From NCBI GenBank assembly GCA_943331105.2, contig CALQKH020000010.1:130298-162297 (forward strand): 32,000 nt of DNA. Direction: 5' to 3'. Shown here in pieces: positions 604 to 23,079 of the stretch (the first letter of the stretch is position 1; every line of letters begins with the position of its first letter). The translations under genes and the position numbers were made by a program. The notes beneath the pieces were generated by a model. The model saw only the letters and a program-made list of their open reading frames with translations. It was not told the origin of the DNA and searched no databases. The stretch comes from Akkermansia muciniphila (GTDB taxonomy: Bacteria > Pseudomonadota > Gammaproteobacteria > Burkholderiales > Burkholderiaceae_C).

Positions 604-4818
<4,215 letters not shown>

Positions 4819-9265: not shown

Positions 9266-9928
9266 ATGGCAAATATATTGGTGGTGGACGACGAGCTGGG
9301 CATTCGCGACCTGCTCTCCGAGATCCTCTTTGACGAAGGGCACCAGGTTGAACTTGCCGAGAACGCAGCTCAGGCTCGCGAAGCCCGACTCAACATGCGA
9401 CCTGATCTGGTTTTGCTGGACATCTGGATGCCCGATACCGATGGCGTTAGCCTGCTCAAAGAGTGGGCTGCATCGGGTTTGTTGACCATGCCTGTGATCA
9501 TGATGAGTGGGCACGCCACCATCGACACCGCTGTCGAGGCGGTCAAAATCGGCGCCCAAGCTTTCCTTGAAAAACCCATTACCCTGCAAAAACTCCTCAA
9601 GGCGGTCGAGCAGGGTTTGGCGCGAGTTCAAGTTCAACAAGCCATGCTGGCTGCAGCGCCGCAGCCCCTTTCCAGCACCTTGTCCATCTCCAGTCTGGTG
9701 GTCCATGAGACCGTCGCCACCCCCGATGTTCAACAAAGCTTTGAACTGGACCGTCCGCTGCGTGAGGCGCGTGACGCTTTCGAAAAAGCCTACTTCGAAT
9801 TTCATTTGGCACACGAAGCCGGATCCATGACCCGTGTGGCAGAAAAAACAGGCTTGGAGCGAACCCATTTGTACAGAAAGCTCAAGCAATTGGGCGTCGA
9901 CTTGACCCGCAGCAAACGCCACAGCTGA
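9266..9928 (+). CDS. Response regulator with a receiver domain and a Fis-type HTH, NtrX-like but lacking a central AAA+ domain
   Basis: MANILVVDDELGIRDLL...LVLLDIWMPDTDG forms the receiver domain. The C-terminal MTRVAEKTGLERTHLYRKLKQLGV is a Fis/HTH_8-type helix-turn-helix. It lies 18 nt after the kinase gene. Confidence 0.85.
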   Translation: MANILVVDDELGIRDLLSEILFDEGHQVELAENAAQAREARLNMRPDLVLLDIWMPDTDGVSLLKEWAASGLLTMPVIMMSGHATIDTAVEAVKIGAQAFLEKPITLQKLLKAVEQGLARVQVQQAMLAAAPQPLSSTLSISSLVVHETVATPDVQQSFELDRPLREARDAFEKAYFEFHLAHEAGSMTRVAEKTGLERTHLYRKLKQLGVDLTRSKRHS

Positions 9929-9981
9929 CGGGGCTCAAGAGACCCGGAAGCAGCGTTCGACTCTGCTATGAATGTTGCTTT

Positions 9982-10007
9982 CCGGCCCGGTAGCTCGGTT
10001 GGTAGAG
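9982..10007 (+). pseudogene. Orphan 5' fragment of tRNA-Phe (acceptor 5' strand plus D-arm)
   Basis: ccggcccggtagctcGgttggtagag matches 12922-12947 of the intact gene at 25 of 26 positions. The downstream sequence cannot form an anticodon arm or a T-arm. Confidence 0.6.
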
Positions 10008-10280
10008 TACCTGACCGCATTTACGGGTACTGAATGCTACTAACGCAACAGTCGCAAGCACTTGCTGAACGATGGCACGAGGTACCTTGCAGAGCAATCA
10101 GAGTGTTTTTGGATAATGGAGCCATCGCAATTTACCTTGTGGAGACTGGCACAGCATATTTCTTTCGTTGCATCGCTCCACTTCAGTTTTGACATCATTA
10201 TTTGTCTACTGATTTGTGTAGTGCCAACCGAACGAGTTTTGTGTGTCCCCAAGCGCCAATTTTCTTTACGCTCAGCCTTG

Positions 10281-11093
10281 CTATGAAAAAAACCGTAAGA
10301 GTTTGAGTTTTGTTCGGACCATGTCAGCTAATTGATGTTGCTGCTTTTCATTCAGTGTCCGGTGCAAAGCATTTCCGTAATCACGCTTTACTTTAAGCGC
10401 TGCAGTCAGGGCGTTGAAATAGTCCAGCATGGCTTCAGGAATTTCAAGAAAATCAACGGATGGATCTGAAAGCGCCCTGGCGATATTGCTGTTGACTTGG
10501 TCGCCTTTTGCACCGAGAGCTGCCACTTGCGATGATGCATCCTGAAACAGGTTTGCAGCAGTTTTTGTCTGAGCTTCGGACATGCCAAGCTTGCGAACAT
10601 ATTCATCACTGGACAGATTTTCGATCTTGGCCAGATAGACAGAATTTTTCGTCATTGAGCTGAATGCTTTAGTAATGGTAGGGGCCATCCTTCCTCTAAA
10701 GTTCAAGCGCTGTTTTTCATCCAGACTGGCATCAAATTTTGCCCAGTGGCTTGCGATCTTATGATGGCCCATGACGGTCTCGTGTAGACGACCCTGATAG
10801 TGTGTTACCAAAACACTCGAGAGGTCAGAAAATGTGGCGTCCCTTCGGTCAATTGCCTCACTGATCGTTTGCTTGAATGATTTCTTTGTGCCACCAGTGA
10901 CGTCTGGAAATTTTTTGGTGCTCTCAATCGCCTCGTTCAATAGCGCTGTTTGTGCTTCAGTCAGATTGATTCCTCTGACTGCTACGTTCGCATCAAGGAG
11001 CAGATCATTTGTTCCTCTACCGGCATTGGTCGTCACAGAAGTCAGCGACAGAATGACGATTGCAATTGATTTCATCAGATTTAATCGAAGCAT
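10281..11093 (-). CDS. Exported protein with repeated LTXXQ-like motifs (possibly Spy/CpxP-like; function tentative)
   Basis: N-terminal signal peptide MKSIAIVILSLTSVTTNA. Motifs INLTEAQ, LDEKQ, GMSEAQ and LNEKQ. GC is lower than in the core. Confidence 0.55.
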   Translation of the reverse strand: MLRLNLMKSIAIVILSLTSVTTNAGRGTNDLLLDANVAVRGINLTEAQTALLNEAIESTKKFPDVTGGTKKSFKQTISEAIDRRDATFSDLSSVLVTHYQGRLHETVMGHHKIASHWAKFDASLDEKQRLNFRGRMAPTITKAFSSMTKNSVYLAKIENLSSDEYVRKLGMSEAQTKTAANLFQDASSQVAALGAKGDQVNSNIARALSDPSVDFLEIPEAMLDYFNALTAALKVKRDYGNALHRTLNEKQQHQLADMVRTKLKLLRFFS

Positions 11094-11335
11094 TTTTTTC
11101 CTGTTTCTTGATTTCGACCAGTATTTTTTAAATGCACAAGGGTTTGAGCATGAGGGCGAAAAACGGCGGAGTGGGCAGCCTCACTCCACGCCGTCTTGCT
11201 TCCTTGCAAGCGAATCCACAGCCGCCAAACGTCCCCTGACCAAGCGTCAATTTTATTTACGGTCAGTCACCAGCCGTAAAGCAGCACCGGACCTAACTGT
11301 GAAATCGTGAACAAGAGCAAGCTGGTACCGATGCT

Positions 11336-12517
11336 TTATTTCAAACTCGCCCACTCTGCATAAAGTGAGTAGAGTTCTGCCATGTAGTTCTCAACATTTG
11401 AGAATGCAATCAGAACTCTGTTGTTGGCATGATTCCAACCGATGCGTTGCCCCCCATGGCCCGCAGCCCAGTAGCTGTCGCGATGTTTGAAGTTATCAGT
11501 CCAAATTTGATAACCATACCCGTCAAAGTGAGCGCCAATTTTTCGTGAATTTGGTATTTGCTTTTTGACGGCTCTGCGAATGTAATCTGCGAAGCATCCG
11601 GTGCCCGATTCGTTGGCCTTGACCCATGCCGCGAACCTGATCCAGTCTTCAAGGTACATGCGAACATTTCCATCCGATGTCCCATATCCAAAGTGGTCCT
11701 GGCCGATGATGGCGGGTCTTCTGATACCGGCGGGGATCAGTACTTCTCGTTCGACATATTTGGCGTATGTTGTGCCCGTAGTCTTGTTCAGTGCAACACC
11801 GAGAGTCAGAGGGTCAGTACTACGATAGATAAACAGTTCACCGGGCTTCAAAGGGATGCCTTGACTATTTTTGGCTGCACAGGATACCTGACTTGTGGAG
11901 AGAATGTCCAAGTAAGTCATGGAACCACTGCGAACTCGCTGGTCTTGCTCCGATGTCCAAATGGTAGTGTCTGGGTTCCCGGCCCATGTGCCGGAGCTCA
12001 TTTTCAGCAAGTGCTCTATGGTCGCTTTTCCAAGATCGGTGCCAGATAACTCTGGAATCAACTTGCCGACCTCATCGTCCAGGGACATTTTGCCCTCGCA
12101 AATAGCTTTGCCCACTGCCATTGCAGTCACTGTCTTGCCAACGCTGAAGCTGAGAAATCGATTGGATGAACCAGCCGGGGACTTGTAGCCTACCCAAACA
12201 ACTTGGTTCGCATCGACGAGAGCCATCGCTTTGGCAGAAGAATGTTCAAAAAGCCGCTGTGCTTTTTCGACTATCTCTTTTTCATGACTCAATGGCGCTC
12301 TGAAAACCAATGAGGATGCAGGCTTTGCAACCCTGGTTTGGTAATGCCAAGCTTGACCATTAGATAAAAGCCATTCGTCTGGTGCCGAAGAGAACTGTCC
12401 CGAACTGGGTAATTGAGCTAACACTGTTAACGGTAAGCACATCAATGAAGCCAGTGCAGATTTCCAGAAAGCACACCTAGTCATGGCATAGGGCGCATTA
12501 ATCGTGTCAGATCTCAA
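11336..12517 (-). CDS. Beta-lactamase-fold serine hydrolase, exported (alternative start at 12484)
   Basis: Signal-like segment ALASLMCLPLTVLAQ. S-x-x-K motif in FSVGKTVTAM. YRS and GHGG motifs are plausible counterparts of the Y-x-N and K/H-x-G boxes of the class C / PBP-like hydrolase family. Confidence 0.8.
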   Translation of the reverse strand: MRSDTINAPYAMTRCAFWKSALASLMCLPLTVLAQLPSSGQFSSAPDEWLLSNGQAWHYQTRVAKPASSLVFRAPLSHEKEIVEKAQRLFEHSSAKAMALVDANQVVWVGYKSPAGSSNRFLSFSVGKTVTAMAVGKAICEGKMSLDDEVGKLIPELSGTDLGKATIEHLLKMSSGTWAGNPDTTIWTSEQDQRVRSGSMTYLDILSTSQVSCAAKNSQGIPLKPGELFIYRSTDPLTLGVALNKTTGTTYAKYVEREVLIPAGIRRPAIIGQDHFGYGTSDGNVRMYLEDWIRFAAWVKANESGTGCFADYIRRAVKKQIPNSRKIGAHFDGYGYQIWTDNFKHRDSYWAAGHGGQRIGWNHANNRVLIAFSNVENYMAELYSLYAEWASLK

Positions 12518-12923
12518 GATGGCCCATCCTTTCAGTTGCTCTCAGCCAAGGTTTCTTTCTTTAATATACAAGGGCTTGTGTGCTGTTGGCAATGAATGAA
12601 GACGTAGCAAACCTGAAGGACCACTCTGGCCAACGCTGCCCCATAGGATTAAAAACGGTCCAGTAACAAGCTGTGCGCCAGGCATGGCCGCAGCGTAAAT
12701 TTTCTTGACGCTTGAGAAATGCATTCAACGTTCAAACCGACTGGGGCAACCGCAAGCCTGTGGCGCATCCGCACCCCGCACGGTGCTCAATAAGTGTGCA
12801 ACGTCTGTGCTAAGACGCTGGCACAGCAAAACGTCAGCCAAGATTTGGACCATCCGGTGACGCACTTTTTGGGATGCAGCAGGAATCCTCGCGGAAAAGT
12901 CCTGCTACAATCCCATCCTTACC

Positions 12924-13045
<122 letters not shown>

Positions 13046-13110: not shown

Positions 13111-14403
13111 ATGACGCAGCCACCGCAAAAGCCCCAGTATTTAGACAGCCAGCGACATGCGGATGGGCAAAATTCTGCGTTTCAAAACACCACCCTCCGT
13201 TCGTTTCTCACAGCCCTCCAACCCGCACAGCCCAAAGCCATTTACTTGCGAGACGGCGAAGTTGTTTTGTATCGCCGTAGCCGCAGTTTGCTGTACCAGT
13301 GTCGCTACCGATTGGCTGACGGCAGTTGGACGAGACAGACGACGGGCAAAGCCGCTTTAGAACACGCCATTGCCCGTGCTTGCGACATCTACGACGAAGC
13401 CAGATACCGACAACGGCTGGGTTTAGCACACCAAGCACACTCTGTCGCACAGATTGCGGCTATTTGCTGTGTTGACTTGCGGCAGCAGATTGACGCGAAG
13501 GGCAAGAAGACGGCGTTGAATGACTATCTAAGCATCATCGAACGCTACTTCGTGCCTTACTTTGGGGAGCGTCAGTTGGAGACATTGACGCACACGGACA
13601 TACGGGAGTTTGAACTGTGGCGAGATAGGCAAATGACACGCCGTCCCAAAACATCAACACTCAACAACTTCACAAGTGCTTGGAGCCGTGTGATTGAAAC
13701 GGCAGTAAGTCGTGGCTACATCTCAGAGCGTGTGCCAGTACCCAAACTCACCAGCAAAGGCGAGAAGGGCAAAACACGCCCAGCGTTCAGCAAGGAAGAA
13801 ATTGATGTGTTGTTGGAGTTTATAGAAGGGTGGAGCCAGCAAGGCAGGCTGGCTGTAGAACGCGAGATACGCCCGCTGTTGCGTGACTATGTGGAGATGT
13901 TGCTTTACACGGGTATGCGGCACGGTACGGAGGCAATGGGCATACGGTGGCGGGATTTGGAGTGGCACACAAAGGATGGTGTGCGGTATTTGCGAGTGTG
14001 GGTAGATGGCAAAACCGGCGGGCGTTGGTTGATTGCCAAGCACAAGGCAGTAGATGTGCTGCGTAGGCTACACGCGAGGCAGAAGGACATTTGCGAACTG
14101 TCGTTTGAAACGACATTCGCAGAGCGGGTGCCTCACAAGTTGTTCAGGTTCAGTGACGGCTATCAACCACCCAGTTTGAACGGCACATTCAGGCGGCTGA
14201 TGCGAGATACAGGTTTGCTGAAGAACGAGGACGGGCAGACACGCACTCTGTATTCGTTGCGGCACACCTACGCCACCTTTGAACTACTACGAAGTGGCAC
14301 TGACATACACACGCTCAGCAAGCAGATGGGCAACTCTGCGGCAATGATTGAACGGCACTACTCAAAGTTGACGGCAACTATGGCAGCGGATAAGCTTGCT
14401 TGA
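13111..14403 (+). CDS. Tyrosine-type site-specific integrase
   Basis: 430 aa. Catalytic-domain motifs LYTGMRHGTEAMGIRWRDL (Arg I), LYSLRHTYATFELL (H-x-x-R region) and MIERHYSKL (Tyr nucleophile). It is adjacent to the tRNA att site. Confidence 0.9.
   Translation: MTQPPQKPQYLDSQRHADGQNSAFQNTTLRSFLTALQPAQPKAIYLRDGEVVLYRRSRSLLYQCRYRLADGSWTRQTTGKAALEHAIARACDIYDEARYRQRLGLAHQAHSVAQIAAICCVDLRQQIDAKGKKTALNDYLSIIERYFVPYFGERQLETLTHTDIREFELWRDRQMTRRPKTSTLNNFTSAWSRVIETAVSRGYISERVPVPKLTSKGEKGKTRPAFSKEEIDVLLEFIEGWSQQGRLAVEREIRPLLRDYVEMLLYTGMRHGTEAMGIRWRDLEWHTKDGVRYLRVWVDGKTGGRWLIAKHKAVDVLRRLHARQKDICELSFETTFAERVPHKLFRFSDGYQPPSLNGTFRRLMRDTGLLKNEDGQTRTLYSLRHTYATFELLRSGTDIHTLSKQMGNSAAMIERHYSKLTATMAADKLA
14099..14115. 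repeat. Island palindrome copy 0: tgtcgtt-tga-aacgaca (inside the integrase CDS)
   Basis: Exact 7-3-7 palindrome read directly from the sequence. Confidence 0.9.
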
Positions 14404-14586
14404 GGCTTCCTTCAAGAAAAATCAATTTATCTCATACAAAACTGTGCTGTGTACTAGCAAACGGGCACAGCAAGTTAATACTTTTTAATCATAACTTGCA
14501 TAAATGAAAAAATTCAGCAAAAATGACATCTTTGCATATCCATGTCGGAGTTTTACAGCTTTATGAGCTGGGAAGGTTAGTAAATA

Positions 14587-16368
14587 ATGCCCTTTGAAAA
14601 AATACTAATCGCGCTAATCCGAAATACCAAATCAATTAAAGCGTTATTTTTTACCATAATTTTTTTATTGAATGCAAATTGTTATGCTCAATATATCCTA
14701 GATGACTCATTAATTGTGGGAGATAAGATTGAAGGTGTTGTAAAAATTAAAGATAACTCATCTAACAATGCGAAAATTCTAATGATTCCATTGCCGGATG
14801 GGCAGTGGAATATTCGTAAAATAGAAAGGCAAAAAGCATCTTTTTTTATAAAAGAGAATAGCATAATATACTTGGATAAAATAGAAAATAATTATGTACT
14901 TGAGTCAATCACTATTGATGTCAAGCTAACAAATAGCCCCAATTATTGCAAGCTTTATGAAAATGCTACTTATTTGAATTTGGTGTCACGGCACAGTAAT
15001 ATTTCTGATAATGCATCAGATTGTCAGGCTCTACAATTTTCCAAATCATTAAACTCCACAAATCGATTGGCTAATGAATTCAAAAAGGCGTGGACGAAAT
15101 CTGGAATTGATTGGACTGATGAGCAATATATATTAACGCATATTTATAACAGAATTCAAAATAATCAGATAATTATTTTATATTCAGCTTATATTTCTAA
15201 ACATTCAATCGCTAAAGACTGGGACTCTACCGAGCAAAATAGTAAACTGAGAAAGTGGGCCAATATCTACTATCAAACGATGATTGCAGCAATCACCAAT
15301 GATTCCAAAAGTTTAGAAAAAATATCATCATTAAGTCATCAAATAGATTCTAGATTTAAAGACCATCTTAAGTTGGTTGAAAGCGCTGCAGTGGCATTAA
15401 GCTTGAATACGGAGTCTATTGATCAAAAATTAAACTTTAATAACAACCCTTCTGTCAAACCCGATAGCTTAACGACGAACTCCAATGAGAATTATTCAGT
15501 ACCGCTGCAAACGAGCCCATCTTCTACCGCTAAGATTGATGCATTCACTCTACATGTCCCTTCGAATATTACAGAGCTAGTCAGCCCCAATCCTCAAGTG
15601 CTCTCTATTGACATTAGTACGCTTAAAAAACAGCAAAACGAGGCTGAGAAAGGAGGAGTAAACATAAAAAGTTCGAGACTTCACCAGGGATTGGCAAATG
15701 ATGACTTAAACAAACACATAAACTCATCCCGGATGAATCCCTCAACCAACTCGATGCAAGGTTTCAGCTCGAAAGAAATTAGCACTACAACCCACGTCGA
15801 ACAATCGATTCGCACTAATGCGGATAAGTCTATATCAGAAAATAAAAGTGTCAATCAGCACCGTCAGTCGATTCCTCAAGATTCAAAGGAAAAATACCAA
15901 CAACAAGTCGACGCGACTGAAGCTATAATGCAAAGCGGGAAAATATATCATTGTCTGCCAGGATATATTCTTGCCCTGCACCAAAATAAAATTAACTTTG
16001 CAGAAAAATGGAAGCTAAGAGTTAATAAACAAGAAAAAATTCCAGAAAAATTTAATGGTAGAAATAATGATGAGCTAGTTATTACTGAAGCTTGCTATGA
16101 GAATGAAAGGGCTCAATATTGGTGGGATAGTAATGTTAAAATTACCAGCAAAGGATATCATACAAGTTTAACTTCATGCGGAGATAAAATCGTATTTGTA
16201 GAAAGCGATACGAATAACAAAGGGCGTCCGACACTGTTTTTAAAAAGCCCTGGAAGGAATGCTGAAGTTTTGAGAGCAACTTGCTTTCCCGTTAATCAAT
16301 GCGAAAATCTGCCGCCTGGGCCATTTGTTAATTACGTAGCTAGCAAGTCTCTATGTCATAAAAGATAA
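14587..16368 (+). CDS. Secreted or membrane-anchored protein of unknown function, Asn/Ser/Lys-rich
   Basis: The 593-aa ORF in very AT-rich DNA is far too long to occur by chance at this composition. ggaagg lies 10 nt upstream of the ATG. Signal-like segment ALFFTIIFLLNANCYA. The C-terminal domain carries conserved cysteines. Confidence 0.6.
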   Translation: MPFEKILIALIRNTKSIKALFFTIIFLLNANCYAQYILDDSLIVGDKIEGVVKIKDNSSNNAKILMIPLPDGQWNIRKIERQKASFFIKENSIIYLDKIENNYVLESITIDVKLTNSPNYCKLYENATYLNLVSRHSNISDNASDCQALQFSKSLNSTNRLANEFKKAWTKSGIDWTDEQYILTHIYNRIQNNQIIILYSAYISKHSIAKDWDSTEQNSKLRKWANIYYQTMIAAITNDSKSLEKISSLSHQIDSRFKDHLKLVESAAVALSLNTESIDQKLNFNNNPSVKPDSLTTNSNENYSVPLQTSPSSTAKIDAFTLHVPSNITELVSPNPQVLSIDISTLKKQQNEAEKGGVNIKSSRLHQGLANDDLNKHINSSRMNPSTNSMQGFSSKEISTTTHVEQSIRTNADKSISENKSVNQHRQSIPQDSKEKYQQQVDATEAIMQSGKIYHCLPGYILALHQNKINFAEKWKLRVNKQEKIPEKFNGRNNDELVITEACYENERAQYWWDSNVKITSKGYHTSLTSCGDKIVFVESDTNNKGRPTLFLKSPGRNAEVLRATCFPVNQCENLPPGPFVNYVASKSLCHKR

Positions 16369-16404
16369 TTTTAGACAATAAAGCCATAAAGAAAGATTTC
16401 AGCG

Positions 16405-17271
16405 ATGGAAAATAGAAAGAGCTTTGCAATTGCTGCTTTTACATTGGTAATTTTATTCGCTATAAAATCGGCATCTGCTGAAACTTGGGAAAATTTTCTT
16501 TCAAAGCAGTCTAAAGAATTCAAGGAGAATATCGTTAAGGTAAATAAATTGATAGAAAAAGACAAGGTGCTGGCAAAGAGTTTTTCTGATATGAGAGGTG
16601 AGTATGCAAAATTATTGAGAAATCCAAAAATTGATAAACAATTGCTACTTCAGATAATGGATAATTTTAAATTTAGCCTTTATCAATGTGCATATGATGA
16701 TGCTGACTGCGTATTGGATGTTGTGCTTAGCATTTCCACCACCTTTAGGCTTAATAATTTAAATAATTCTCAGTGGAGTCCTCTGAATTATGTTCGGCCA
16801 TCATATAATAATCATGAATCAATTTATGATGAATATTATTCAAAGCTTAAAGAAAAAACCATAGCAGCTGAAAAACAGATTTCCAAAGCAATTAAAGAAG
16901 AAGAAATTAATAGAGCAGCAACCCTATATTCTTGTGAGCTTAAGTTTGCAACACTCAATTTTCTTATAGGAAATGATGGGATGGTTAAAATTCCAAGTTT
17001 TAAATTTAAAAGAGAGTCCAGCTCCTATGAACAATGCTACCTGCCCGGAACGCTTAAGACATCTCGAGCTTATCCGTTTAAGACTGACGGAAATAAGTAC
17101 ACATGGAAAGGAGACGATAAATTTATATCATATGAACTTGTAAAATCAGATTCTTCGAACTCATCGAAGAGTTTTCTTTACTGGGAAAATACTGACAAAA
17201 TGTCTAATCCGACGGGACTGCACAGGGGGGCATGTCGAATTATAGATGAGTGTCCATCATCATTGAGGTGA
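16405..17271 (+). CDS. Secreted protein of unknown function; its C-terminal Cys pattern resembles the preceding gene
   Basis: 288-aa ORF in AT-rich DNA. Signal peptide FAIAAFTLVILFAIKSASA. It starts 37 nt after the previous gene. Confidence 0.6.
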   Translation: MENRKSFAIAAFTLVILFAIKSASAETWENFLSKQSKEFKENIVKVNKLIEKDKVLAKSFSDMRGEYAKLLRNPKIDKQLLLQIMDNFKFSLYQCAYDDADCVLDVVLSISTTFRLNNLNNSQWSPLNYVRPSYNNHESIYDEYYSKLKEKTIAAEKQISKAIKEEEINRAATLYSCELKFATLNFLIGNDGMVKIPSFKFKRESSSYEQCYLPGTLKTSRAYPFKTDGNKYTWKGDDKFISYELVKSDSSNSSKSFLYWENTDKMSNPTGLHRGACRIIDECPSSLR

Positions 17272-17545
17272 GTGCTATATAATTTATAGACATTGAAACC
17301 GGTAATTATTTAAATATTAACCGCAGAGCACCCAAATCGGCTGCGTTAATTCGTTGCTTGCGACTATAAACTATCGTTACTCAGTGTTAAATTTATTGCC
17401 GCTATTTCTTATATAATAATACCTATGATCCTTATGTCATGATGAGCTATTTTAAAAATTAATATAAGTTACGAATTTACACCAGCGACCAAGGGATTGA
17501 CATAATCTTATCTTAATTGGTATATGGTGGAAATCAGTCAGGAAG

Positions 17546-17574
17546 AAAAAAGCCCGCTCAATGGCGGGCTTTTT
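17546..17574. terminator. Bidirectional rho-independent terminator
   Basis: aaaaa-agcccgc-tcaatg-gcgggct-tttt. A 7-bp GC-rich stem is flanked by an A-run and a T-run. It closes the leftward ATPase operon and the rightward AT-rich cassette. Confidence 0.75.
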
Positions 17575-17580
17575 GTATGG

Positions 17581-17597
17581 TGTCGTTCAAAACGACA
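17581..17597. repeat. Island palindrome copy 1: tgtcgtt-caa-aacgaca (between the terminator and the ATPase stop codon)
   Basis: Exact 7-3-7 palindrome read directly from the sequence. Confidence 0.9.
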
Positions 17598-17602
17598 TTG
17601 TT

Positions 17603-18268
17603 TTAAGGGGTGCTGGCACTCTGCTTGCGGCGGGCAAGGCGTTTGACACGGCTCATCACTTCACGCATTGAGCCATTGGCAGCGGCAATCTCAGCCGTCA
17701 ATTCAGTGTCGTTTAAAACGACATTCAAATCCGCAGCCACCTTGCGGGCAATGGGCAGCAGTTGCCCCGTGCTGGCAGCGTTCATTTCAACCAAAACGCA
17801 CCTGTCTTTGAGTCCTTTGTCCAACGACGAAATGTTGTTGGTTGTGAGAATGAAGATGGCACGCTTGGTGTTCATAACTGACTTGAGACTTTGCTGTGCC
17901 AGTTTTGACAGGTTATCCACCTCGTCCAAAACAAAGTAGTGCAAGCCACTGGCATTAAGAGAGCTCTTGCTCAGCTGCTTATCCAGCAAGGTTGTCACTT
18001 GAGGGCCATTAAATCCTTGCTGGCAGGCAATGAACTCTTCAGGCATAGCCAACTCTTTCCCTGTTCGTCCCATTTCGATACATTCAGGCAGCATCTTTGC
18101 GAGCGTGGTTTTGCCAGTGCCAAAGGCGCCGTAAAGCAGAATGCCGCACTTGCCATTGTCAGGCAGTTTCTCAAAGCTGCAAATGATGTCCTCAATGCGC
18201 AGGTAAGATTCTTCGTTGCCGTAGATGATGTCAAACGGCGTGGTAGGTGTGTAATCAATGGAAGTCAT
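17603..18268 (-). CDS. Clamp-loader (RFC / gp44 / delta-prime)-like AAA+ ATPase, 221 aa, without a collar domain
   Basis: Walker A GAFGTGKTT. Walker B FVLDEVDNL followed by AQQSL. Sensor-1 ILTTNN. SRC-like motif KDRC. GSMREV resembles the RFC GDMR box. The start is placed at ATG 18268 because of the RBS aaagga 6-7 nt upstream; the longer ORF reaching 18343 has no RBS. Confidence 0.8.
   Translation of the reverse strand: MTSIDYTPTTPFDIIYGNEESYLRIEDIICSFEKLPDNGKCGILLYGAFGTGKTTLAKMLPECIEMGRTGKELAMPEEFIACQQGFNGPQVTTLLDKQLSKSSLNASGLHYFVLDEVDNLSKLAQQSLKSVMNTKRAIFILTTNNISSLDKGLKDRCVLVEMNAASTGQLLPIARKVAADLNVVLNDTELTAEIAAANGSMREVMSRVKRLARRKQSASTP
17707..17723. repeat. Island palindrome copy 2: tgtcgttt-a-aaacgaca (inside the ATPase CDS, read as VVLND)
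   Basis: Exact 8-1-8 palindrome. It is part of the 23-bp repeat 17707-17729. Confidence 0.9.
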
Positions 18269-18290
18269 ATAAATCCTTTGTATAAAATAA

Positions 18291-18307
18291 TGTCGTTTTG
18301 AACGACA
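18291..18307. repeat. Island palindrome copy 3: tgtcgtt-ttg-aacgaca (5' leader of the ATPase gene)
   Basis: Exact palindrome 23 nt upstream of the ATPase start codon. A 7-bp hairpin acagggc/gccctgt lies beside it at 18313-18334. Confidence 0.9.
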
Positions 18308-18354
18308 GATAAACAGGGCAGTGAGCAGCCCTGTGCTGCCCACTTGCCTATTAA

Positions 18355-19083
18355 TTACGCAGCTTTCTTTTGCTCTGCGTAAAGGGCGGCAAAGGCGGCA
18401 TTGACTGCCCCGCCAGCCCGTGTAAAGCCACGCACAACAAAAGCACCTTCTGCGTTTTGTTCAGCAATCAGCAGGCAGCAATCACCCATAAACTCGCCGT
18501 CAGCCAGCAGAGACAGTGCCTCTGATTTCACAGTAGCCAGTTCAGGCATACATTCAAACTGCTGTTTCGCTGTTGCTGCTTTAATTTTGGGTTTGATGAA
18601 GGTGGCACTTTGGCTGAGGCGGATTTCTTGTATGCCGCCGTTCTGCTCAATCCACTCTGCCAGTTGTGTCGCCATAACCTTTTGCTTGATGGCTTCACGC
18701 AGTACCAGTGAGTAGGTGCTGAGGCGGCGTCTGTCCACCGCACCAAACACAGCCTTTACAACACGGGTGGCAGGTGAAGCGTCTTTCTTGTAGGAGTAGC
18801 CACGCAGTTTGTAGAAGGCTTCCAAACCAGCGTTGCGTTGCTTGGCAAGTTCAGGCGTGTCCGCTTGGGCAATGGCAAGGCATTTGGCAAGCACGGCATA
18901 CAGAGCCAGGTTGCTGGTGCGGTAAACGCCTTCTTCCCAAACAACACGCTGAGTTTCCAAATCTGCCAGCACTTTAGTCAGCGGCTGGGCAACGGCAAGG
19001 GGAGTTAAAGTAATTTCGTCGTTTTGAACGACAACGGTGGAAGTGGGTTGAGCCACAAGAGACATAGCGGTAGCATTTGACAT
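18355..19083 (-). CDS. Hypothetical protein, 242 aa, first gene of the ATPase operon
   Basis: Strong RBS aaaggagaatcct before the ATG. The composition looks protein-like, with Ala/Leu-rich segments that appear helical. I recognise no family. Confidence 0.7.
   Translation of the reverse strand: MSNATAMSLVAQPTSTVVVQNDEITLTPLAVAQPLTKVLADLETQRVVWEEGVYRTSNLALYAVLAKCLAIAQADTPELAKQRNAGLEAFYKLRGYSYKKDASPATRVVKAVFGAVDRRRLSTYSLVLREAIKQKVMATQLAEWIEQNGGIQEIRLSQSATFIKPKIKAATAKQQFECMPELATVKSEALSLLADGEFMGDCCLLIAEQNAEGAFVVRGFTRAGGAVNAAFAALYAEQKKAA
19017..19033. repeat. Island palindrome copy 4: Cgtcgtt-ttg-aacgaca (16 of 17; inside the 242-aa CDS, read as VVQND)
   Basis: Read directly from the sequence; one mismatch at the first base. 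Confidence 0.8.
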
Positions 19084-19298
19084 AGGATTCTCCTTTGATT
19101 GTCAGAATTAAAGATAAAAAAGTTAAAGAAGCAGCGTCAAAGACGCAAACACTGAGCAGTGCTGAAAACGGAATAAACCGTTGATTTTTATGGAAAAATT
19201 ATCTTGAACGGTGATTCGTTTAAGATGTATCTATTGTAAATTTTTAGGCTGATTTTGAGACCAGTTATTCATAATCGTGTAATTAGAGTGTTAAACAA

Positions 19299-20033
19299 AT
19301 GAGCATTGTTTTCAAAGCCCAGCACCCCATCTTTGGGCGGGGTAAAAAGCCGTTGGGCTTGTCCTACCAACAACGCAGCCCCTACTACTGGTGGTGGGAG
19401 TTTTTGCGGCGGAATAGGGACTACGCTGACTGCTGTGCTGCTGGTGGCACGGGGGCGTTGGCAGGGCTCTACGCTGACTTTGGTGTCGTTTCAAACGACA
19501 ACTTCAAAGAGTGGTGGACAGGGCACGGGTTCCGTCTGTTTGCGGAGCAGGCAAAGCCCGTCAAACTGTTTGAACTGGATACGCCCGCTGACTGGGATAG
19601 CTGTTGGACAAAAGACGCTGTGATGGTGGTGGCTGTGCCGCTGGATATACCCAAACGCAACCTACAGGGTTTCTTTGCCCGTTTGCTCAAAGACAGGCAC
19701 GGCGGCAAGCGTGGGCGTAAGGCACTGAGTGATGCGGACGCCAGCAACGCCCGTTATCCCTTGCACCGCAATGTCAGCATCCACACTCTGCGTATTCAAC
19801 TGGCTGTCTATGACGCTGTATTGGCAGCAAGAGCCAGTCCGAAGAAAATAACGCTGGCTCAAATTGCAAAAAGTGTAGGAATCAACCCCAAATCCAACAA
19901 AAGAACAGAGGGCGAGGTGATGGATGCGGCAAGGCGGCGTTCAGTGTTGGCGGCAACTGTCAGTCGTCACTTCAAAGATGCCCAACGCATCGTTGCCAAC
20001 ACGGCAAAAGGGCAGTTTCCCAACAGTGATTGA
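19299..20033 (+). CDS. Putative transcriptional regulator with an N-terminal WWWEFLRRNRDY motif (DUF6499/FseA-like, tentative) and a C-terminal HTH-like segment
   Basis: SPYYWWWEFLRRNRDYADCC resembles the WEFLRRN..Y signature I recall from DUF6499/DUF2285 regulators of integrative elements. ITLAQIAKSVGI looks like an HTH. It is divergent from the ATPase operon across an AT-rich 215-bp region. Confidence 0.65.
   Translation: MSIVFKAQHPIFGRGKKPLGLSYQQRSPYYWWWEFLRRNRDYADCCAAGGTGALAGLYADFGVVSNDNFKEWWTGHGFRLFAEQAKPVKLFELDTPADWDSCWTKDAVMVVAVPLDIPKRNLQGFFARLLKDRHGGKRGRKALSDADASNARYPLHRNVSIHTLRIQLAVYDAVLAARASPKKITLAQIAKSVGINPKSNKRTEGEVMDAARRRSVLAATVSRHFKDAQRIVANTAKGQFPNSD
19484..19500. repeat. Island palindrome copy 5: tgtcgtt-tca-aacgaca (inside the 244-aa CDS, read as VVSND)
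   Basis: Exact 7-3-7 palindrome read directly from the sequence. Confidence 0.9.
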
Positions 20034-20036
20034 CGC

Positions 20037-20053
20037 TGTCGTTTAAAACGACA
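20037..20053. repeat. Island palindrome copy 6: tgtcgttt-a-aaacgaca (fills the 21-bp gap between convergent stop codons)
   Basis: Exact 8-1-8 palindrome. It is part of the 23-bp repeat 20037-20059. Confidence 0.9.
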
Positions 20054-20054
20054 T

Positions 20055-20639
20055 TCAAACCAACTCAACAGCACGGCGTTTGACATCGTCATTGACGGTG
20101 ACATAACGCTGGGTTGTGGCAATGCTTTTGTGTCCAGCAAGTGCGGCAAGCACGAACACTGAAACGCCCTGTGACGCAAGACTGGTTAGAAATGTCTTTC
20201 TGCCTGAATGGCTGCTGGCATTGCTCACGCCTGCTCGTTTGTAAACCCAGTAAAAGTGCTGAGCCAGTGTGTTGGGCGAAAAGTGACGGCGGGGTCCCCT
20301 GTGTGATGGGAACAATGGCAGTTCTGGTGACTTGTTGGTGCGTGTCTCAATGTAGTCTGCCAACTCTGCCTGTAAGCGGCTGTTGATGTAAATGGTGCGG
20401 GCGTGTTGGTGTTTGACGCGATGTGCTGCCAAAAAAACCTCACTACGCACAGCCCCCTTGTTGTCCAACACATCGCCCAGTGTCAGCCCAGCAACTTCGC
20501 TGACACGCAAGCCCGCAGCAACCGTCATCATCAACATTGCCCTGTTGCGTTGTGCGTAGGGTTGCGTTGCCGTGTATGCCAAAACCGTTTGTAGTTCTGC
20601 GGGTGTGAGTGATTTTGCTGCTGCCATTTCGTGCTCCAA
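20055..20639 (-). CDS. Short (194 aa) tyrosine recombinase, catalytic domain only
   Basis: RBS ggagcacgaa before the ATG. Motifs AAGLRVSEVAGLTLGDV (Arg I), SHSGRKTFLTSL (H-x-x-R) and LAGHKSIATTQRYV (His, Tyr). There is no N-terminal core-binding domain. Confidence 0.85.
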   Translation of the reverse strand: MEHEMAAAKSLTPAELQTVLAYTATQPYAQRNRAMLMMTVAAGLRVSEVAGLTLGDVLDNKGAVRSEVFLAAHRVKHQHARTIYINSRLQAELADYIETRTNKSPELPLFPSHRGPRRHFSPNTLAQHFYWVYKRAGVSNASSHSGRKTFLTSLASQGVSVFVLAALAGHKSIATTQRYVTVNDDVKRRAVELV

Positions 20640-21499
20640 ATAATGTGCGTGAAATAAGTTTGCTTTCTTTGACGCTGGACGAGCAAGAGAAACCCGATGC
20701 TTTGGCGGGTTGATAGTGATCTGTTGAAAAACAAGAGGTTGCGTTGCCGTCCAAGTAGTTTGCGTATTCTGTTTGGTCTCGTGTATTTACACAGATGCGT
20801 GGGCAACGGGCAATGAAGTGGGCAAGAACGCTTAAAACGCCCTACAAGCGTGTGCGTGCCAGCGTCATAGTCGTAGCGGACTAGCCGCTCAAAATCACCG
20901 CGTGTAGGGCTGATTTGATGTGTTGCTGTGCGTTGCTGCCCAAATCCCATTTGCTGCTACAGAAAAATTGCTGCGTAATTTCTGCGTGATGCTGAGATCT
21001 CGCCACCTGGTGATTTGCTCTAACTGTGGTGTTGAACAAGAGTGCGGTCATACAAAAGTTTGACCGATGTATTTCTATACACCTGACGCACTCGAAAGAT
21101 GTAGGAAGATGATTTAGAGCGAACGCTGTTCGCTTGCGTATCGCTTGCCGCTCACGCAATCCGCTTCGCTTTCTGTATTTGAGATGACTGGTTTGGGAAA
21201 GTTTTGAGCAAACGACGGCTATGTCATCGCGTAGATGAACAGAAGCCGCCGTGTCGTTCTGGTCAGTGCAAAGCCCATCGCAGGACGAGATTGGAAGAGT
21301 TTGACGCGAGACGAATGTATTAAAACTCGCAATCTGCTTCTGCATTGATTTGCATTGCAGCAACTCTGCGGCTCACTCAATGCAACAAGCCTCCAATCCA
21401 ACCTGTTGCGAGTGCAGGGGCATTAGCCGTCATATTCCACCCTGCGTTTGTTCCCTTTGTTTGAGCAGTGGAGTATCTGCTGTAGTAGTGCCTGAATGT

Positions 21500-21922
21500 T
21501 TAGTGTTGTGCCAGTGCCAAATGTCGGTGCTGTTTGAATAGTTGTCTGTTGATTTTGCTGCTGATGTTGAGAACGGGATTGGCAGATGCAGGCTTGAGAC
21601 GGCAGCGTGTTCGCTTGTTGCTCATCGCCTGCTGAAACTGTTCCAGTGTCGTGCGTTGTGATTGATTCAGTAGGTTGCTGTGATGTTTGAGAAGAGCGTG
21701 TGCCTGTTGTTGTGCCTGTAGTAATCGAATGTGAGTAGTGCCAAATGTTTGAGCGTTAAAACCAGCGTCTGCCAGCCACTCGTTGGCTTTGATGGTGTCT
21801 GCTGTTTCGTATTTGCGGATTTGGTGTTGTAGTTCGTGTTTCTGCATACAAGTATTTAGCAACGACCAAACAATGCCTGTGTAAAAGTGAATGATTGTTT
21901 GGTGTGTGTGGCACTTTGACAC
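21500..21922 (-). CDS. Questionable hypothetical ORF (GTG 21922 or ATG 21847 start)
   Basis: Open frame with a Gln/His-rich sequence that looks helical. Neither candidate start has a convincing RBS. Confidence 0.3.
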   Translation of the reverse strand: MSKCHTHQTIIHFYTGIVWSLLNTCMQKHELQHQIRKYETADTIKANEWLADAGFNAQTFGTTHIRLLQAQQQAHALLKHHSNLLNQSQRTTLEQFQQAMSNKRTRCRLKPASANPVLNISSKINRQLFKQHRHLALAQH

Positions 21923-22001
21923 TGGACGGCATAAAGAGGTTGTCCAGATGTTGGTGATGAAAATAAAGTTAGTTCATTGCTACACACAAAGGAATAACGC
22001 A

Positions 22002-22442
22002 ATGACAGCACTGACAGGTTTGAAATTGACAGCAGCACAGAAGCCTACGCAGATGTCGCCAATCCAACAACGCCGCAACAAGTTGGCAAAACGCTTGTGG
22101 GAGCAGATGGAACTGGCAAAGGCAGAGCAATCGGGCACGACATTCGCTCCCAAACGCTTTCGCTCTGTCGTTCAAAACGACACGGGACAACGCATCCAAG
22201 TTGAGCAAGCCAAACGCATCAAGCAATGGTGGTTTGTTGCGGACAACGGCAAGTTGGTATTGAGCGTGAGATACGGCACCAAGTTGCTGGAACTGGCAAA
22301 GGGCAAGTGGGCAGTGGAAGTGGGCACTGAGAAAGAATTGGTGCCTACGCTGGAACTGCTGAAGAGTGCTGTGCTAGCTGGTGAGTTGGACACGCAGATT
22401 GAAGCGGCAGCCAACAAACTGCGTGAGGGTTTTGGCGGGTAA
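22002..22442 (+). CDS. Hypothetical protein, 146 aa (island-associated family, unnamed)
   Basis: RBS aaagga 8 nt before ATG 22002; the upstream part of the longer ORF looks non-coding. The sequence RRNKLAKRLWEQMELAKAE...KRIKQWWFVADNGKLVLSVRYG...GELD resembles proteins I recall from other proteobacterial islands. This has not been verified. Confidence 0.65.
   Translation: MTALTGLKLTAAQKPTQMSPIQQRRNKLAKRLWEQMELAKAEQSGTTFAPKRFRSVVQNDTGQRIQVEQAKRIKQWWFVADNGKLVLSVRYGTKLLELAKGKWAVEVGTEKELVPTLELLKSAVLAGELDTQIEAAANKLREGFGG
22166..22182. repeat. Island palindrome copy 7: tgtcgtt-caa-aacgaca (inside the 146-aa CDS, read as VVQND)
   Basis: Exact 7-3-7 palindrome read directly from the sequence. Confidence 0.9.
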
Positions 22443-22549: not shown

Positions 22550-22738
22550 ATGCGTATTGACGAAATCATCCGAAAACCCATTAAGCCCAAGCCACCGATG
22601 AACCCCGCCCAAGCCCGCATCCACAGCCTCAAGCAAGGCGTAGAGCGTAGCAAGGAACAACTACGAACAGAACGCGAGCGACAACGACAGCAGCGTGAGG
22701 CAGAACGCAAACGCAAGCAGATGCAGCAACGCTTCTAA
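22550..22738 (+). CDS. Small basic Arg/Gln/Glu-rich protein, 62 aa, hypothetical
   Basis: ATG 22550 begins MRIDEIIRKPIKPKPPMNPAQARIHSLKQGVERSKEQLRTERERQRQQREAERKRKQMQQRF. The charged heptad-like tail suggests a coiled coil. The RBS is weak. Confidence 0.4.
   Translation: MRIDEIIRKPIKPKPPMNPAQARIHSLKQGVERSKEQLRTERERQRQQREAERKRKQMQQRF

Positions 22739-22988: not shown

Positions 22989-23079
<91 letters not shown>

Follow-up and report, generated by a model that had tools for sequence, protein, structure and literature searches.

A conserved array of dispersed palindromes in a small tRNA-integrated genomic island, and an uncharacterised protein as its candidate reader

The palindromes of the island

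The subject of this study is a small genomic island and the array of short palindromes dispersed over its backbone, both contained in a window of 32,000 nucleotides (the whole stretch of DNA that was analysed: assembly GCA_943331105.2, contig CALQKH020000010.1, positions 130,298 to 162,297). The palindromes are specific to the island, under selection and present in multiple copies in every sufficiently long relative, and their type covaries with residue 155 of p242, an island protein of 242 residues. An earlier reading of the window (the original prediction) had likened them to the dispersed operators or centromere-like sites of a mobile element, comparable to those of KorB or parS, and this view is supported by their restriction to the island and their conservation in homologous islands. 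From the comparisons presented below, p242 is the best candidate for the binder. On balance we lean, with modest confidence, towards the view that the palindromes are double-stranded DNA (dsDNA) sites for a p242 dimer which, together with an ATPase resembling replication factor C (RFC), would form an island-wide nucleoprotein system of the ParB-parS or KorB-OB kind.

The genes of the island follow one another in the order integrase, AT-rich cargo (two open reading frames, ORFs), ATPase, p242, p244 (divergent to p242), the short recombinase rec194, a gap of about 1.3 kb without a conserved ORF, the DUF6641 gene and p62. When the pattern TGTCGTT-N3-AACGACA was searched for with one mismatch allowed, exactly the eight predicted copies were recovered. 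The one at 19017 had been described as imperfect (16 of 17), and its single mismatch is in the outermost base; a 15-bp core, GTCGTT-N3-AACGAC, is exact in all eight. A chance origin, already thought improbable, is hardly tenable, since none of 100 dinucleotide-preserving shuffles yielded any match. The central triplets are, as reported, CAA/TTG (four sites), TAA (two) and TGA/TCA (two); they obey the rule Y-N-R, with the inner T sometimes a C, and the motif is therefore better written as an 8+1+8 palindrome, TGTCGTTT-N-AAACGACA. Written out, this form, which we call G-type, is TGTCGTTTNAAACGACA. The 21,875 bp outside the island lack a copy, as does the cargo (14404-17545), so that the claimed confinement to the island backbone holds. 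The sites, all located by the pattern search and given without strand, are as follows:

14099 to 14115, site 1, in the integrase coding sequence, where it is read SFETT
17581 to 17597, site 2, ending 5 nt from the ATPase stop codon (17603-17605)
17707 to 17723, site 3, in the ATPase coding sequence at codon 183, read VVLND
18291 to 18307, site 4, in the p242-ATPase gap, 22 nt ahead of the ATPase ATG (18268) and directly behind a hairpin (18313-18334)
19017 to 19033, site 5, early in the p242 coding sequence (49-65 nt in, codons 18-22), read VVQND
19484 to 19500, site 6, in the p244 coding sequence at codon 63, 185 nt in, read VVSND
20037 to 20053, site 7, taking up 17 of the 21 nt that separate the stops of p244 (20033) and rec194 (20055)
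22166 to 22182, site 8, in the DUF6641 coding sequence at codon 55, read VVQND

Three sites are thus intergenic, placed as had been described: past the ATPase stop, ahead of the ATPase start and between two convergent stops. Of the five inside coding sequences, all but the integrase copy are read V-V-x-N-D, again in agreement with the first reading.

Two further observations concern sequences that resemble parts of the palindrome. Its ACGACA half-site recalls the -35 hexamer TTGACA, and an A/T-rich hexamer follows about 16-17 nt downstream of three copies in the related locus L058; this reading was dropped because that spacing fails in the window. Within the non-coding gap, at 21210-21258, half-sites occur split and "inside out", with AAACGAC at 21210 and TGTCGTT at 21252; they are at the base of an imperfect inverted repeat of greater length (AACGACGGCT...AGCCGCCGTGTCGTT).

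Conservation of the sites in related islands

For comparison, 115 loci were fetched, comprising 103 related islands and 12 motif matches from IMG/VR. The p242 family is large, with 545 close homologues in metagenomes and 611 representative clusters at 50% identity, and the hosts of the related islands include Limnohabitans, Polynucleobacter, Dechloromonas, Ferrovum and a Methylococcaceae metagenome-assembled genome. The core common to these loci consists of rec194, a variable p244-like gene, p242 and the ATPase; DUF6641, p62 and an integrase are frequent additions to it. Their integration sites vary (tRNA-Phe, tRNA-Met, tRNA-Ala or none nearby). In a subset of the islands the G-type palindrome is replaced by a variant, GTCCTTT-N-AAAGGAC, which we call C-type and which written out is TGTCCTTTNAAAGGACA.

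The same core with the same motif was found down to 39-53% p242 identity among the scan loci, and the motif family reaches homologues whose alignment to the first sequence of the query profile shows just 27-31% identity. In each of the 28 loci that measure 8 kb or more there are between two and nine exact sites (median 4). In a set of 75 non-redundant loci the density of sites is maximal at p242 and falls to about zero beyond 8-10 kb; with this decay, and with no copy in the 21.9 kb of flanking DNA, the window and the related loci give no support to a genome-wide repeat (repetitive extragenic palindrome, bacterial interspersed mosaic element or uptake sequence), which is the pattern that the original prediction had set against its own reading.

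The original prediction had also proposed looking at homologous islands and at the fate of the codons around the sites. The motif is present in these islands, often at a homologous position, and its position is kept while the surrounding codons drift: it recurs at p242 codon ~17, ATPase codon 183, p244 codon 63, integrase codon ~330 and DUF6641 codon 55, and intergenic slots are re-used across loci as well. No slot is conserved more widely than the one at the start of p242, where 58 of 71 unique loci have an exact motif; the others are clade-specific. Thus, the slot of site 1 holds an exact motif at the aligned column (~codon 330) in 6 of 16 unique G-type integrase orthologues, that of site 6 in 14 of 34 unique G-type p244 orthologues (elsewhere it has decayed to DVxND) and that of site 8 in 5 of 21 unique G-type DUF6641 orthologues. 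ATPase codon 183, the slot of site 3, is used in many loci, and VV-LND is present in 20 of 38 unique G-type orthologues. Among the intergenic slots, that of site 2 (within 60 nt past the ATPase stop) is filled in most C-type loci and, within the first set, in 9 of 47 unique ones; that of site 7 (within 60 nt past the rec194 stop) is filled in 15 of 47 unique loci, as well as in L108, L112 and L114, which are C-type; and site 4 has identical spacing in L001-L007. In short, different clades use different slots, yet the number of sites in an island is kept up, which fits a need for several sites better than one for particular promoters.

This bears directly on one alternative, that the palindromes are classical operators, serving p242 or another island regulator such as p244 only in the repression or activation of island promoters and having neither a structural nor an ATPase-linked role. 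The promoter region concerned is the following:

19084 to 19298, no strand, AT-rich divergent intergenic region between p242 and p244, without a palindrome (sequence reading and consensus scan), presumably holding the promoters of both genes

Sites 5 and 6, in p242 and p244 respectively, could bracket these promoters and act by roadblock or looping, and the site 22 nt before the ATPase start could set the p242:ATPase ratio. However, the 215 bp of the divergent region itself contain no site in the window, and many sites are far from promoters, either 3-20 nt past stop codons, between convergent genes or deep within genes (integrase codon 330, ATPase codon 183). In L108, L112 and L114 they cluster 3-20 nt past the stop codons of the integrase, rec194 and the ATPase. 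Moreover, p244 is exchanged for other proteins while the motif persists. The sites of the window avoid the divergent promoters and gather past stop codons, in tolerant loops and between cistrons. This suits a role in structure, insulation or roadblock better than that of promoter operators, and we regard the purely regulatory explanation as unlikely.

Selection on the DNA and the variant motif

The slot at the start of p242 provides the clearest view of what is being conserved. Residues 1-28 of p242 are predicted to be disordered (AlphaFold2, predicted local distance difference test, pLDDT, below 50), and VVxND is nearly invariant in this tail, which is otherwise hypervariable and subject to insertions and deletions. 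In 45 unique G-type p242 genes the four third-codon positions in the arms are conserved at 0.98-1.0 against a gene-wide mean of 0.55, a level attained by just 0.9% of the p242 third positions. VVxND also occurs in the low-complexity tails of 32 of the 149 representatives listed at 25-90% identity to p242, most of them distant. The C-type motif occupies the same p242 slot as GTCCTTTTAAAGGAC and recodes the peptide from VVQND to VLLKD, altering both arms with their pairing retained. Because the third-codon positions of the arms are near-fixed in a hypervariable tail, and because the C-type motif recodes the peptide, the sequence comparison demonstrates that the sites are maintained by selection on the DNA and not on the encoded peptide. 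They constitute a natural example of a DNA motif that imposes a peptide (VVxND or VLLKD) on several unrelated proteins.

Some islands have a site of the other type beside those of their own: L011 (5761/5807), L085 (63/108), L062 (4185/4390) and L040 (14205). The mixed G-type/C-type pairs are 45-205 bp apart, near the DUF6641/p62 end, and may reflect tandem or hybrid islands, or cross-talk between specificities.

Selection on the DNA sequence could still act through a transcript or a single strand. Either strand of the palindrome can fold into the same hairpin with a 7-bp stem and a 3-nt loop (-6.6 to -9.7 kcal/mol), many copies directly follow stop codons and the switch from G to C keeps the pairing, all of which would suit an RNA or single-stranded DNA (ssDNA) hairpin present in every backbone transcript and read by an RNA-binding protein (possibly p242) or an RNase, for example in 3'-end stabilisation or post-transcriptional control. 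Nevertheless, the stem sequence is invariant across a large divergence, apart from one symmetric variant, and the loop is free, which is the reverse of the usual RNA pattern; the fold is weak (about -6.6 kcal/mol) and has no U-tract; and a symmetric change of both arms is equally expected for a dimeric DNA binder. An intrinsic terminator does not describe the sites either, with their AT-rich stem, the lack of a U-tract and five copies inside coding sequences. A hairpin-based explanation therefore seems to us quite improbable.

Which protein reads the site

Two neighbouring genes of the island are of particular relevance to the identity of the binder:

18355 to 19083, minus strand, p242, 242 residues, member of an uncharacterised family and candidate palindrome binder from its covariation with motif type, with R155 in GGIQEIRLS
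19299 to 20033, plus strand, p244, 244 residues, with a weak regulator-like match (Pfam PF20109, E = 0.005, below the family cut-off) and at a variable position in the family

The original prediction had named both products as possible binders, describing p244 as a helix-turn-helix protein; p242 is now favoured and p244 is not. In L051, L058, L062 and L083, p244 is replaced by very distant or unrelated proteins with the motif unchanged, and p244-like proteins are 90% identical across the G/C switch, which makes p242 the better candidate. In the closest G/C pairs, identity amounts to 99% for DUF6641, 94% for rec194, 90% for the p244-like protein, 81-82% for the integrase, 74-76% for the ATPase and 56-71% for p242. 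The neighbour-joining tree of p242 groups the 15 C-type sequences in a clade of their own; the trees of the ATPase, rec194, p244 and DUF6641 have G-type members inside the C-type clade. The integrase segregates with type too, but as one tight clade with at least 94% identity. DUF6641, rec194, p244, the ATPase and p62 were each considered as the binder and rejected, as none of them segregates with motif type.

Seven p242 columns segregate perfectly by motif type, including R155 to S/T, R218 to H/Y and A223 to Q. At residue 155 the correspondence has no exception among unique p242 sequences, with R or K in 54 of 54 that go with the G-type motif and S or T in 20 of 20 that go with the C-type, and parsimony on the p242 tree places two independent G/C switches. 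Among 119 diverse cluster representatives, all 23 with VVxND have R/K155, and 20 of the 96 others do not (Fisher p = 0.012, uncorrected for phylogeny). Alanine and cysteine were also seen at residue 155 among the p242 clusters. In a blind test, a profile was built from homologues lacking R/K155 (mostly S155) and the residue was confirmed in the matches before their DNA was viewed. The prediction held in all eight new loci thus obtained: seven S155 loci are exclusively C-type and one K155 locus is exclusively G-type, with four copies.

Searches for known relatives of p242 were negative: neither it nor 60 diverse members of its family has a Pfam or NCBIfam match, a sequence profile of 60 diverse homologues found no PDB match, and its AlphaFold2 model (pLDDT 72.6) has no Foldseek match with E below 0.06 in PDB or BFVD. 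The region around residue 155 is modelled confidently, as a helix (138-147), a turn (NGG) and a second helix (151-156), and the model suggests that residues 138-156 may be helix-turn-helix-like. The p244 model (pLDDT 79.3) likewise has no meaningful Foldseek match in PDB or BFVD. The p244 protein is 100% identical to an NCBI protein of Limnohabitans sp. Rim8, from which this freshwater strain is taken to be the host of the island.

The covariation also addresses the possibility that the palindrome is read by a factor of the host or of a helper phage, be it a nucleoid protein, a restriction-modification or methylation enzyme whose target it would be, or an uptake or packaging machinery. In favour of such a factor, the motif is far better conserved than any island protein (p242 of relatives has 39-53% identity to the window protein), and no island protein has a recognised DNA-binding domain except for the weak p244 match. 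But the motif is absent from the host flanks. In IMG/VR it occurs in 12 contigs only, with a single copy in each, at chance level, and these single copies make a helper-phage operator unlikely. Finally, both motif types are found within one genus, Polynucleobacter (L011, L012), which argues against a host factor, and the type tracks the island residue without exception. We therefore give very little credence to a reader encoded outside the island.

A last alternative, put forward in the original prediction, was that the palindromes are recombination sites. They would then be core sites for the integrase or for the following enzyme, serving cassette exchange, inversion or resolution:

20055 to 20639, minus strand, rec194, short tyrosine recombinase of 194 residues with the catalytic domain only (Pfam Phage_integrase, E = 8e-28; NCBIfam XerA/XerD-like, C-terminal domain only)

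The island does encode two tyrosine recombinases; some sites are at module borders (cargo-ATPase, p244-rec194, and past the integrase stop in L112 and L114), and the islands are mosaic, as illustrated by L083 and L073, in which DUF6641 is 99% and p242 68% identical. Tyrosine recombinases, however, need an overlap region of 6-8 bp, and the arms of the palindrome are only 1-3 bp apart; moreover, the central base varies between sites, which would block strand exchange. Nearly all of the 115 loci share one order of the core genes; the one locus seen with another arrangement is L113, whose breakpoints were not compared with the sites. Across the G-to-C switch rec194 is 94% identical, with no type-segregating column, and it is not monophyletic by type, and the integrase families differ between islands with the same motif. 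In the mosaic pairs the identity profiles change gradually by module, with no sharp breaks at the palindromes. Recombination sites are accordingly disfavoured, to the point that we hold this explanation to be highly improbable.

The ATPase partner and a proposed mechanism

Returning to the proposal that p242 binds the palindromes as dsDNA, the gene that directly follows it encodes the putative partner:

17603 to 18268, minus strand, AAA+ ATPase of 221 residues (from ATG 18268), RFC small subunit or clamp-loader-like (NCBIfam RFC small subunit, E = 3e-12)

This protein also matches the PHROG 168 clamp loader (E = 1e-19) and RFC2/5 in PDB (E = 3e-7), and its translation has a Walker A motif (GTGKT), a Walker B motif (LDEVD) and an SRC-like DRC, which together identify an AAA+ module of the RFC clade. 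It has no collar domain: the protein ends at about residue 221, and the alignments reach only residues ~205-235 of the 320-350 of RFC. No ParA gene was found among the island proteins.

In the mechanism that we propose, p242 would bind dsDNA as a dimer, as suggested by the invariant arms, the free centre and the symmetry of the variant. Its residue 155 would touch position 4 of the half-site, with R/K reading G and S/T reading C. The site in the 5' end of p242 would serve autoregulation, for example as a roadblock, while the remaining sites would nucleate a higher-order complex that the ATPase assembles, loads or remodels. The output could be insulation or silencing of backbone transcription, or the maintenance or positioning of the excised element.

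Several considerations weigh against this interpretation. The related loci were retrieved via p242 homology, so that the presence of p242 in them is partly by construction. No DNA-binding domain is recognisable in p242 with Pfam, PDB or Foldseek, and its possible helix-turn-helix is taken solely from the AlphaFold2 secondary structure. With two switches only, hitch-hiking with a tightly linked, unrecognised factor is possible, and a palindromic motif also allows recognition as an RNA or ssDNA hairpin. The role of the ATPase and the biological output are purely inferred, and an episomal stage that would need partitioning is unsupported, as no replication gene, circular contig, or plasmid or phage relative was found.

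A more far-reaching version of the proposal, which we put forward only tentatively and consider rather doubtful, is that p242 and the ATPase constitute a previously unknown site-specific DNA-organising machine, with a new DNA-binding fold, a motor of the clamp-loader clade, a dispersed parS-like array and a one-residue code (R/K versus S/T at residue 155 for G versus C). Such a machine would be found only in small integrative islands of freshwater and soil Proteobacteria, whose silencing, insulation or inheritance it would control. In any case, the large and unannotated p242 family, which has neither a Pfam family nor a solved structure, has now acquired a likely cognate site and a candidate specificity residue. 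This is of some consequence because small tRNA islands are a major source of strain-level variation in the abundant freshwater Limnohabitans and Polynucleobacter; to our knowledge, the regulation and upkeep of such small islands are essentially unknown.

Borders, cargo and other features of the island

The remaining features of the island are those of a tRNA-integrated element:

12924 to 12999, plus strand, tRNA-Phe(GAA), the integration target (ARAGORN; Rfam tRNA, 68 bits)
12955 to 13045, plus strand, attL, a 91-bp direct repeat comprising the 3' half of the tRNA and the terminator hairpin downstream of it (repeat search)
13111 to 14403, plus strand, island integrase, tyrosine recombinase of 430 residues (Pfam Phage_integrase; PHROG 1 integrase, E = 4e-37)
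14404 to 17545, plus strand, AT-rich cargo (GC 32-40%) with ORFs of 593 and 288 residues that have hydrophobic N-termini, without a palindrome (ORF translations, family scans)
17545 to 17575, no strand, terminator-like hairpin GCCCGC-N6-GCGGGC with an A-run and a T-run at its sides, abutting site 2 (read in the sequence)
20655 to 21060, no strand, about 400 bp conserved upstream of rec194 (blastn, 77-88% in ~16 loci)
21395 to 21490, plus strand, structured non-coding element with a covarying stem and a near-invariant loop CATTAGCCGTCATATT, followed by a second hairpin (comparative alignment)
22002 to 22442, plus strand, DUF6641 protein, 146 residues from ATG 22002 (Pfam PF20346, E = 3e-12; PHROG 31551, E = 2e-27)
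22550 to 22738, plus strand, p62, small basic protein MRIDEIIRKPIKPKPP..., kept downstream of DUF6641 or beside sites in relatives (hidden Markov model search of small ORFs)
22989 to 23079, plus strand, attR, the second copy of the 91-bp repeat (repeat search)

The two repeats are 99% identical and the island that they delimit measures 10,034 bp. A tyrosine integrase next to the tRNA, direct repeats of the tRNA 3' end and a deviating composition (GC 32-53% in the island, 56-62% in the flanks) together define a tRNA-integrated genomic island. Within it the GC of the cargo (32-40%) contrasts with that of the backbone (about 50%), as it does with that of the host. Neither cargo ORF has a family match. 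In the related islands the cargo slot is typically filled by porins, OmpA-like and other envelope proteins or by secreted proteins, which suggests that these islands diversify the cell surface; several of them adjoin host Porin_4 genes. The terminator-like hairpin at the end of the cargo, judged from its sequence, is possibly a bidirectional terminator; it was not among the features of the consensus scan.

Two conserved elements are found in the gap between rec194 and DUF6641. The non-coding one at 21395-21490 has a 6-bp stem with compensatory changes (GCAGGG/CCCTGC, GCGGGG/CCCGC, CCAGTC/ACTGG), then the second hairpin, also covarying, and a T-rich tail. It is present in at least 20 loci, including distant ones, has no Rfam match and could be a small RNA or an ssDNA hairpin resembling an origin of transfer (oriT) or a single-strand origin (sso). 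The region at 20655-21060, in which no gene was called in L001-L007, may be regulatory or similar to an attachment site or origin, or it may contain an unrecognised small gene. The Rfam scan of the window returned the tRNA only.

The p62 protein, of about 60 residues and basic, has the pattern MR[IF]YE...IKPIKP...AR I..LK across its family and is often encoded directly beside a palindrome; in L058 a site is located 27 nt upstream of the p62 start. The same locus has a duplicated p62 and porin segment at both sides of the island (1323-3176 and 9688-11553), and L110 carries tandem modules, with two complete copies of the recombinase, p242 and ATPase genes in one contig (5374-9146 and 15302-18414). 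Outside the island, the region 10000-12900, between a response-regulator gene (9266-9928) and the tRNA-Phe, has a GC of 46-51% and encodes a 270-residue protein without a family match and a 393-residue protein of the serine beta-lactamase family; the region may be what is left of an earlier insertion at the tRNA-Phe.

Neither a replication gene nor a primase, helicase or packaging gene was detected among the island proteins, and none of the fetched contigs has the terminal overlap of a circular form. A phage or plasmid origin was considered and set aside, since tblastn with p242 gave no match in PLSDB or INPHARED and IMG/VR has no relative of it. A defence system was likewise rejected, PADLOC giving only weak generic AAA matches.

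Comparison with known systems

Neither this backbone (rec194, p244-like, p242, ATPase, DUF6641, p62) nor the palindrome array was found in the searchable literature, in which neither DUF6641 nor any of six exact site sequences gave a match and searches on the general topic returned tycheposon and Xer reviews only. As an element, the island resembles the tycheposons reported in freshwater Betaproteobacteria (PMC10872708). With such islands, and with phage-inducible chromosomal islands, it shares the integrase next to a tRNA, the direct repeats of the tRNA 3' end and a conserved backbone with variable cargo; unlike them, it has no detected primase, helicase or packaging gene. The dif, lox and attC sites also consist of inverted-repeat half-sites and may have recombinase genes in the same element, but their spacer is 6-8 bp rather than 1-3 bp, and in the islands there is no covariation with a recombinase and rearrangements are essentially absent.

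The array itself is closer to the KorB-OB system of the IncP plasmids RK2/RP4, which also has a multicopy palindrome dispersed at promoters, between genes and inside them, a binder encoded by the element (here, as the covariation suggests, p242) with its gene next to that of a nucleoside triphosphatase (NTPase) partner, and element-wide control. In other respects the two differ: KorB is a ParB-family CTPase with a known helix-turn-helix and IncC a ParA-type Walker ATPase, whereas p242 has no ParB match and its neighbour is an RFC-like AAA+ protein; the OB consensus, TTTAGCSGCTAAA, is unrelated to the site in the window; and the carrier is a small tRNA-integrated island instead of a plasmid. 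Similarly, parS is a palindrome of 16-17 bp that is conserved over a wide phylogeny, more so than its surroundings, and present in several copies, some of them intragenic, including within or next to the gene of the binder, which adjoins an NTPase gene. The islands differ from ParB-parS in having no ParB/Srx domain, no ParA or IncC partner but an ATPase of the AAA+ clamp-loader clade, and no evidence for an autonomously replicating stage that would need partition. What they share with both systems is the dispersed, element-specific, multicopy palindrome, although they belong to neither family. The conservation of the array and its covariation with p242 point to an undescribed parS/KorB-like DNA-binding system. 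If the ATPase does act on the p242-DNA complex, it would represent a new class of NTPase beside those of ParA-ParB, ParM-ParR, TubZ-TubR and IncC-KorB.

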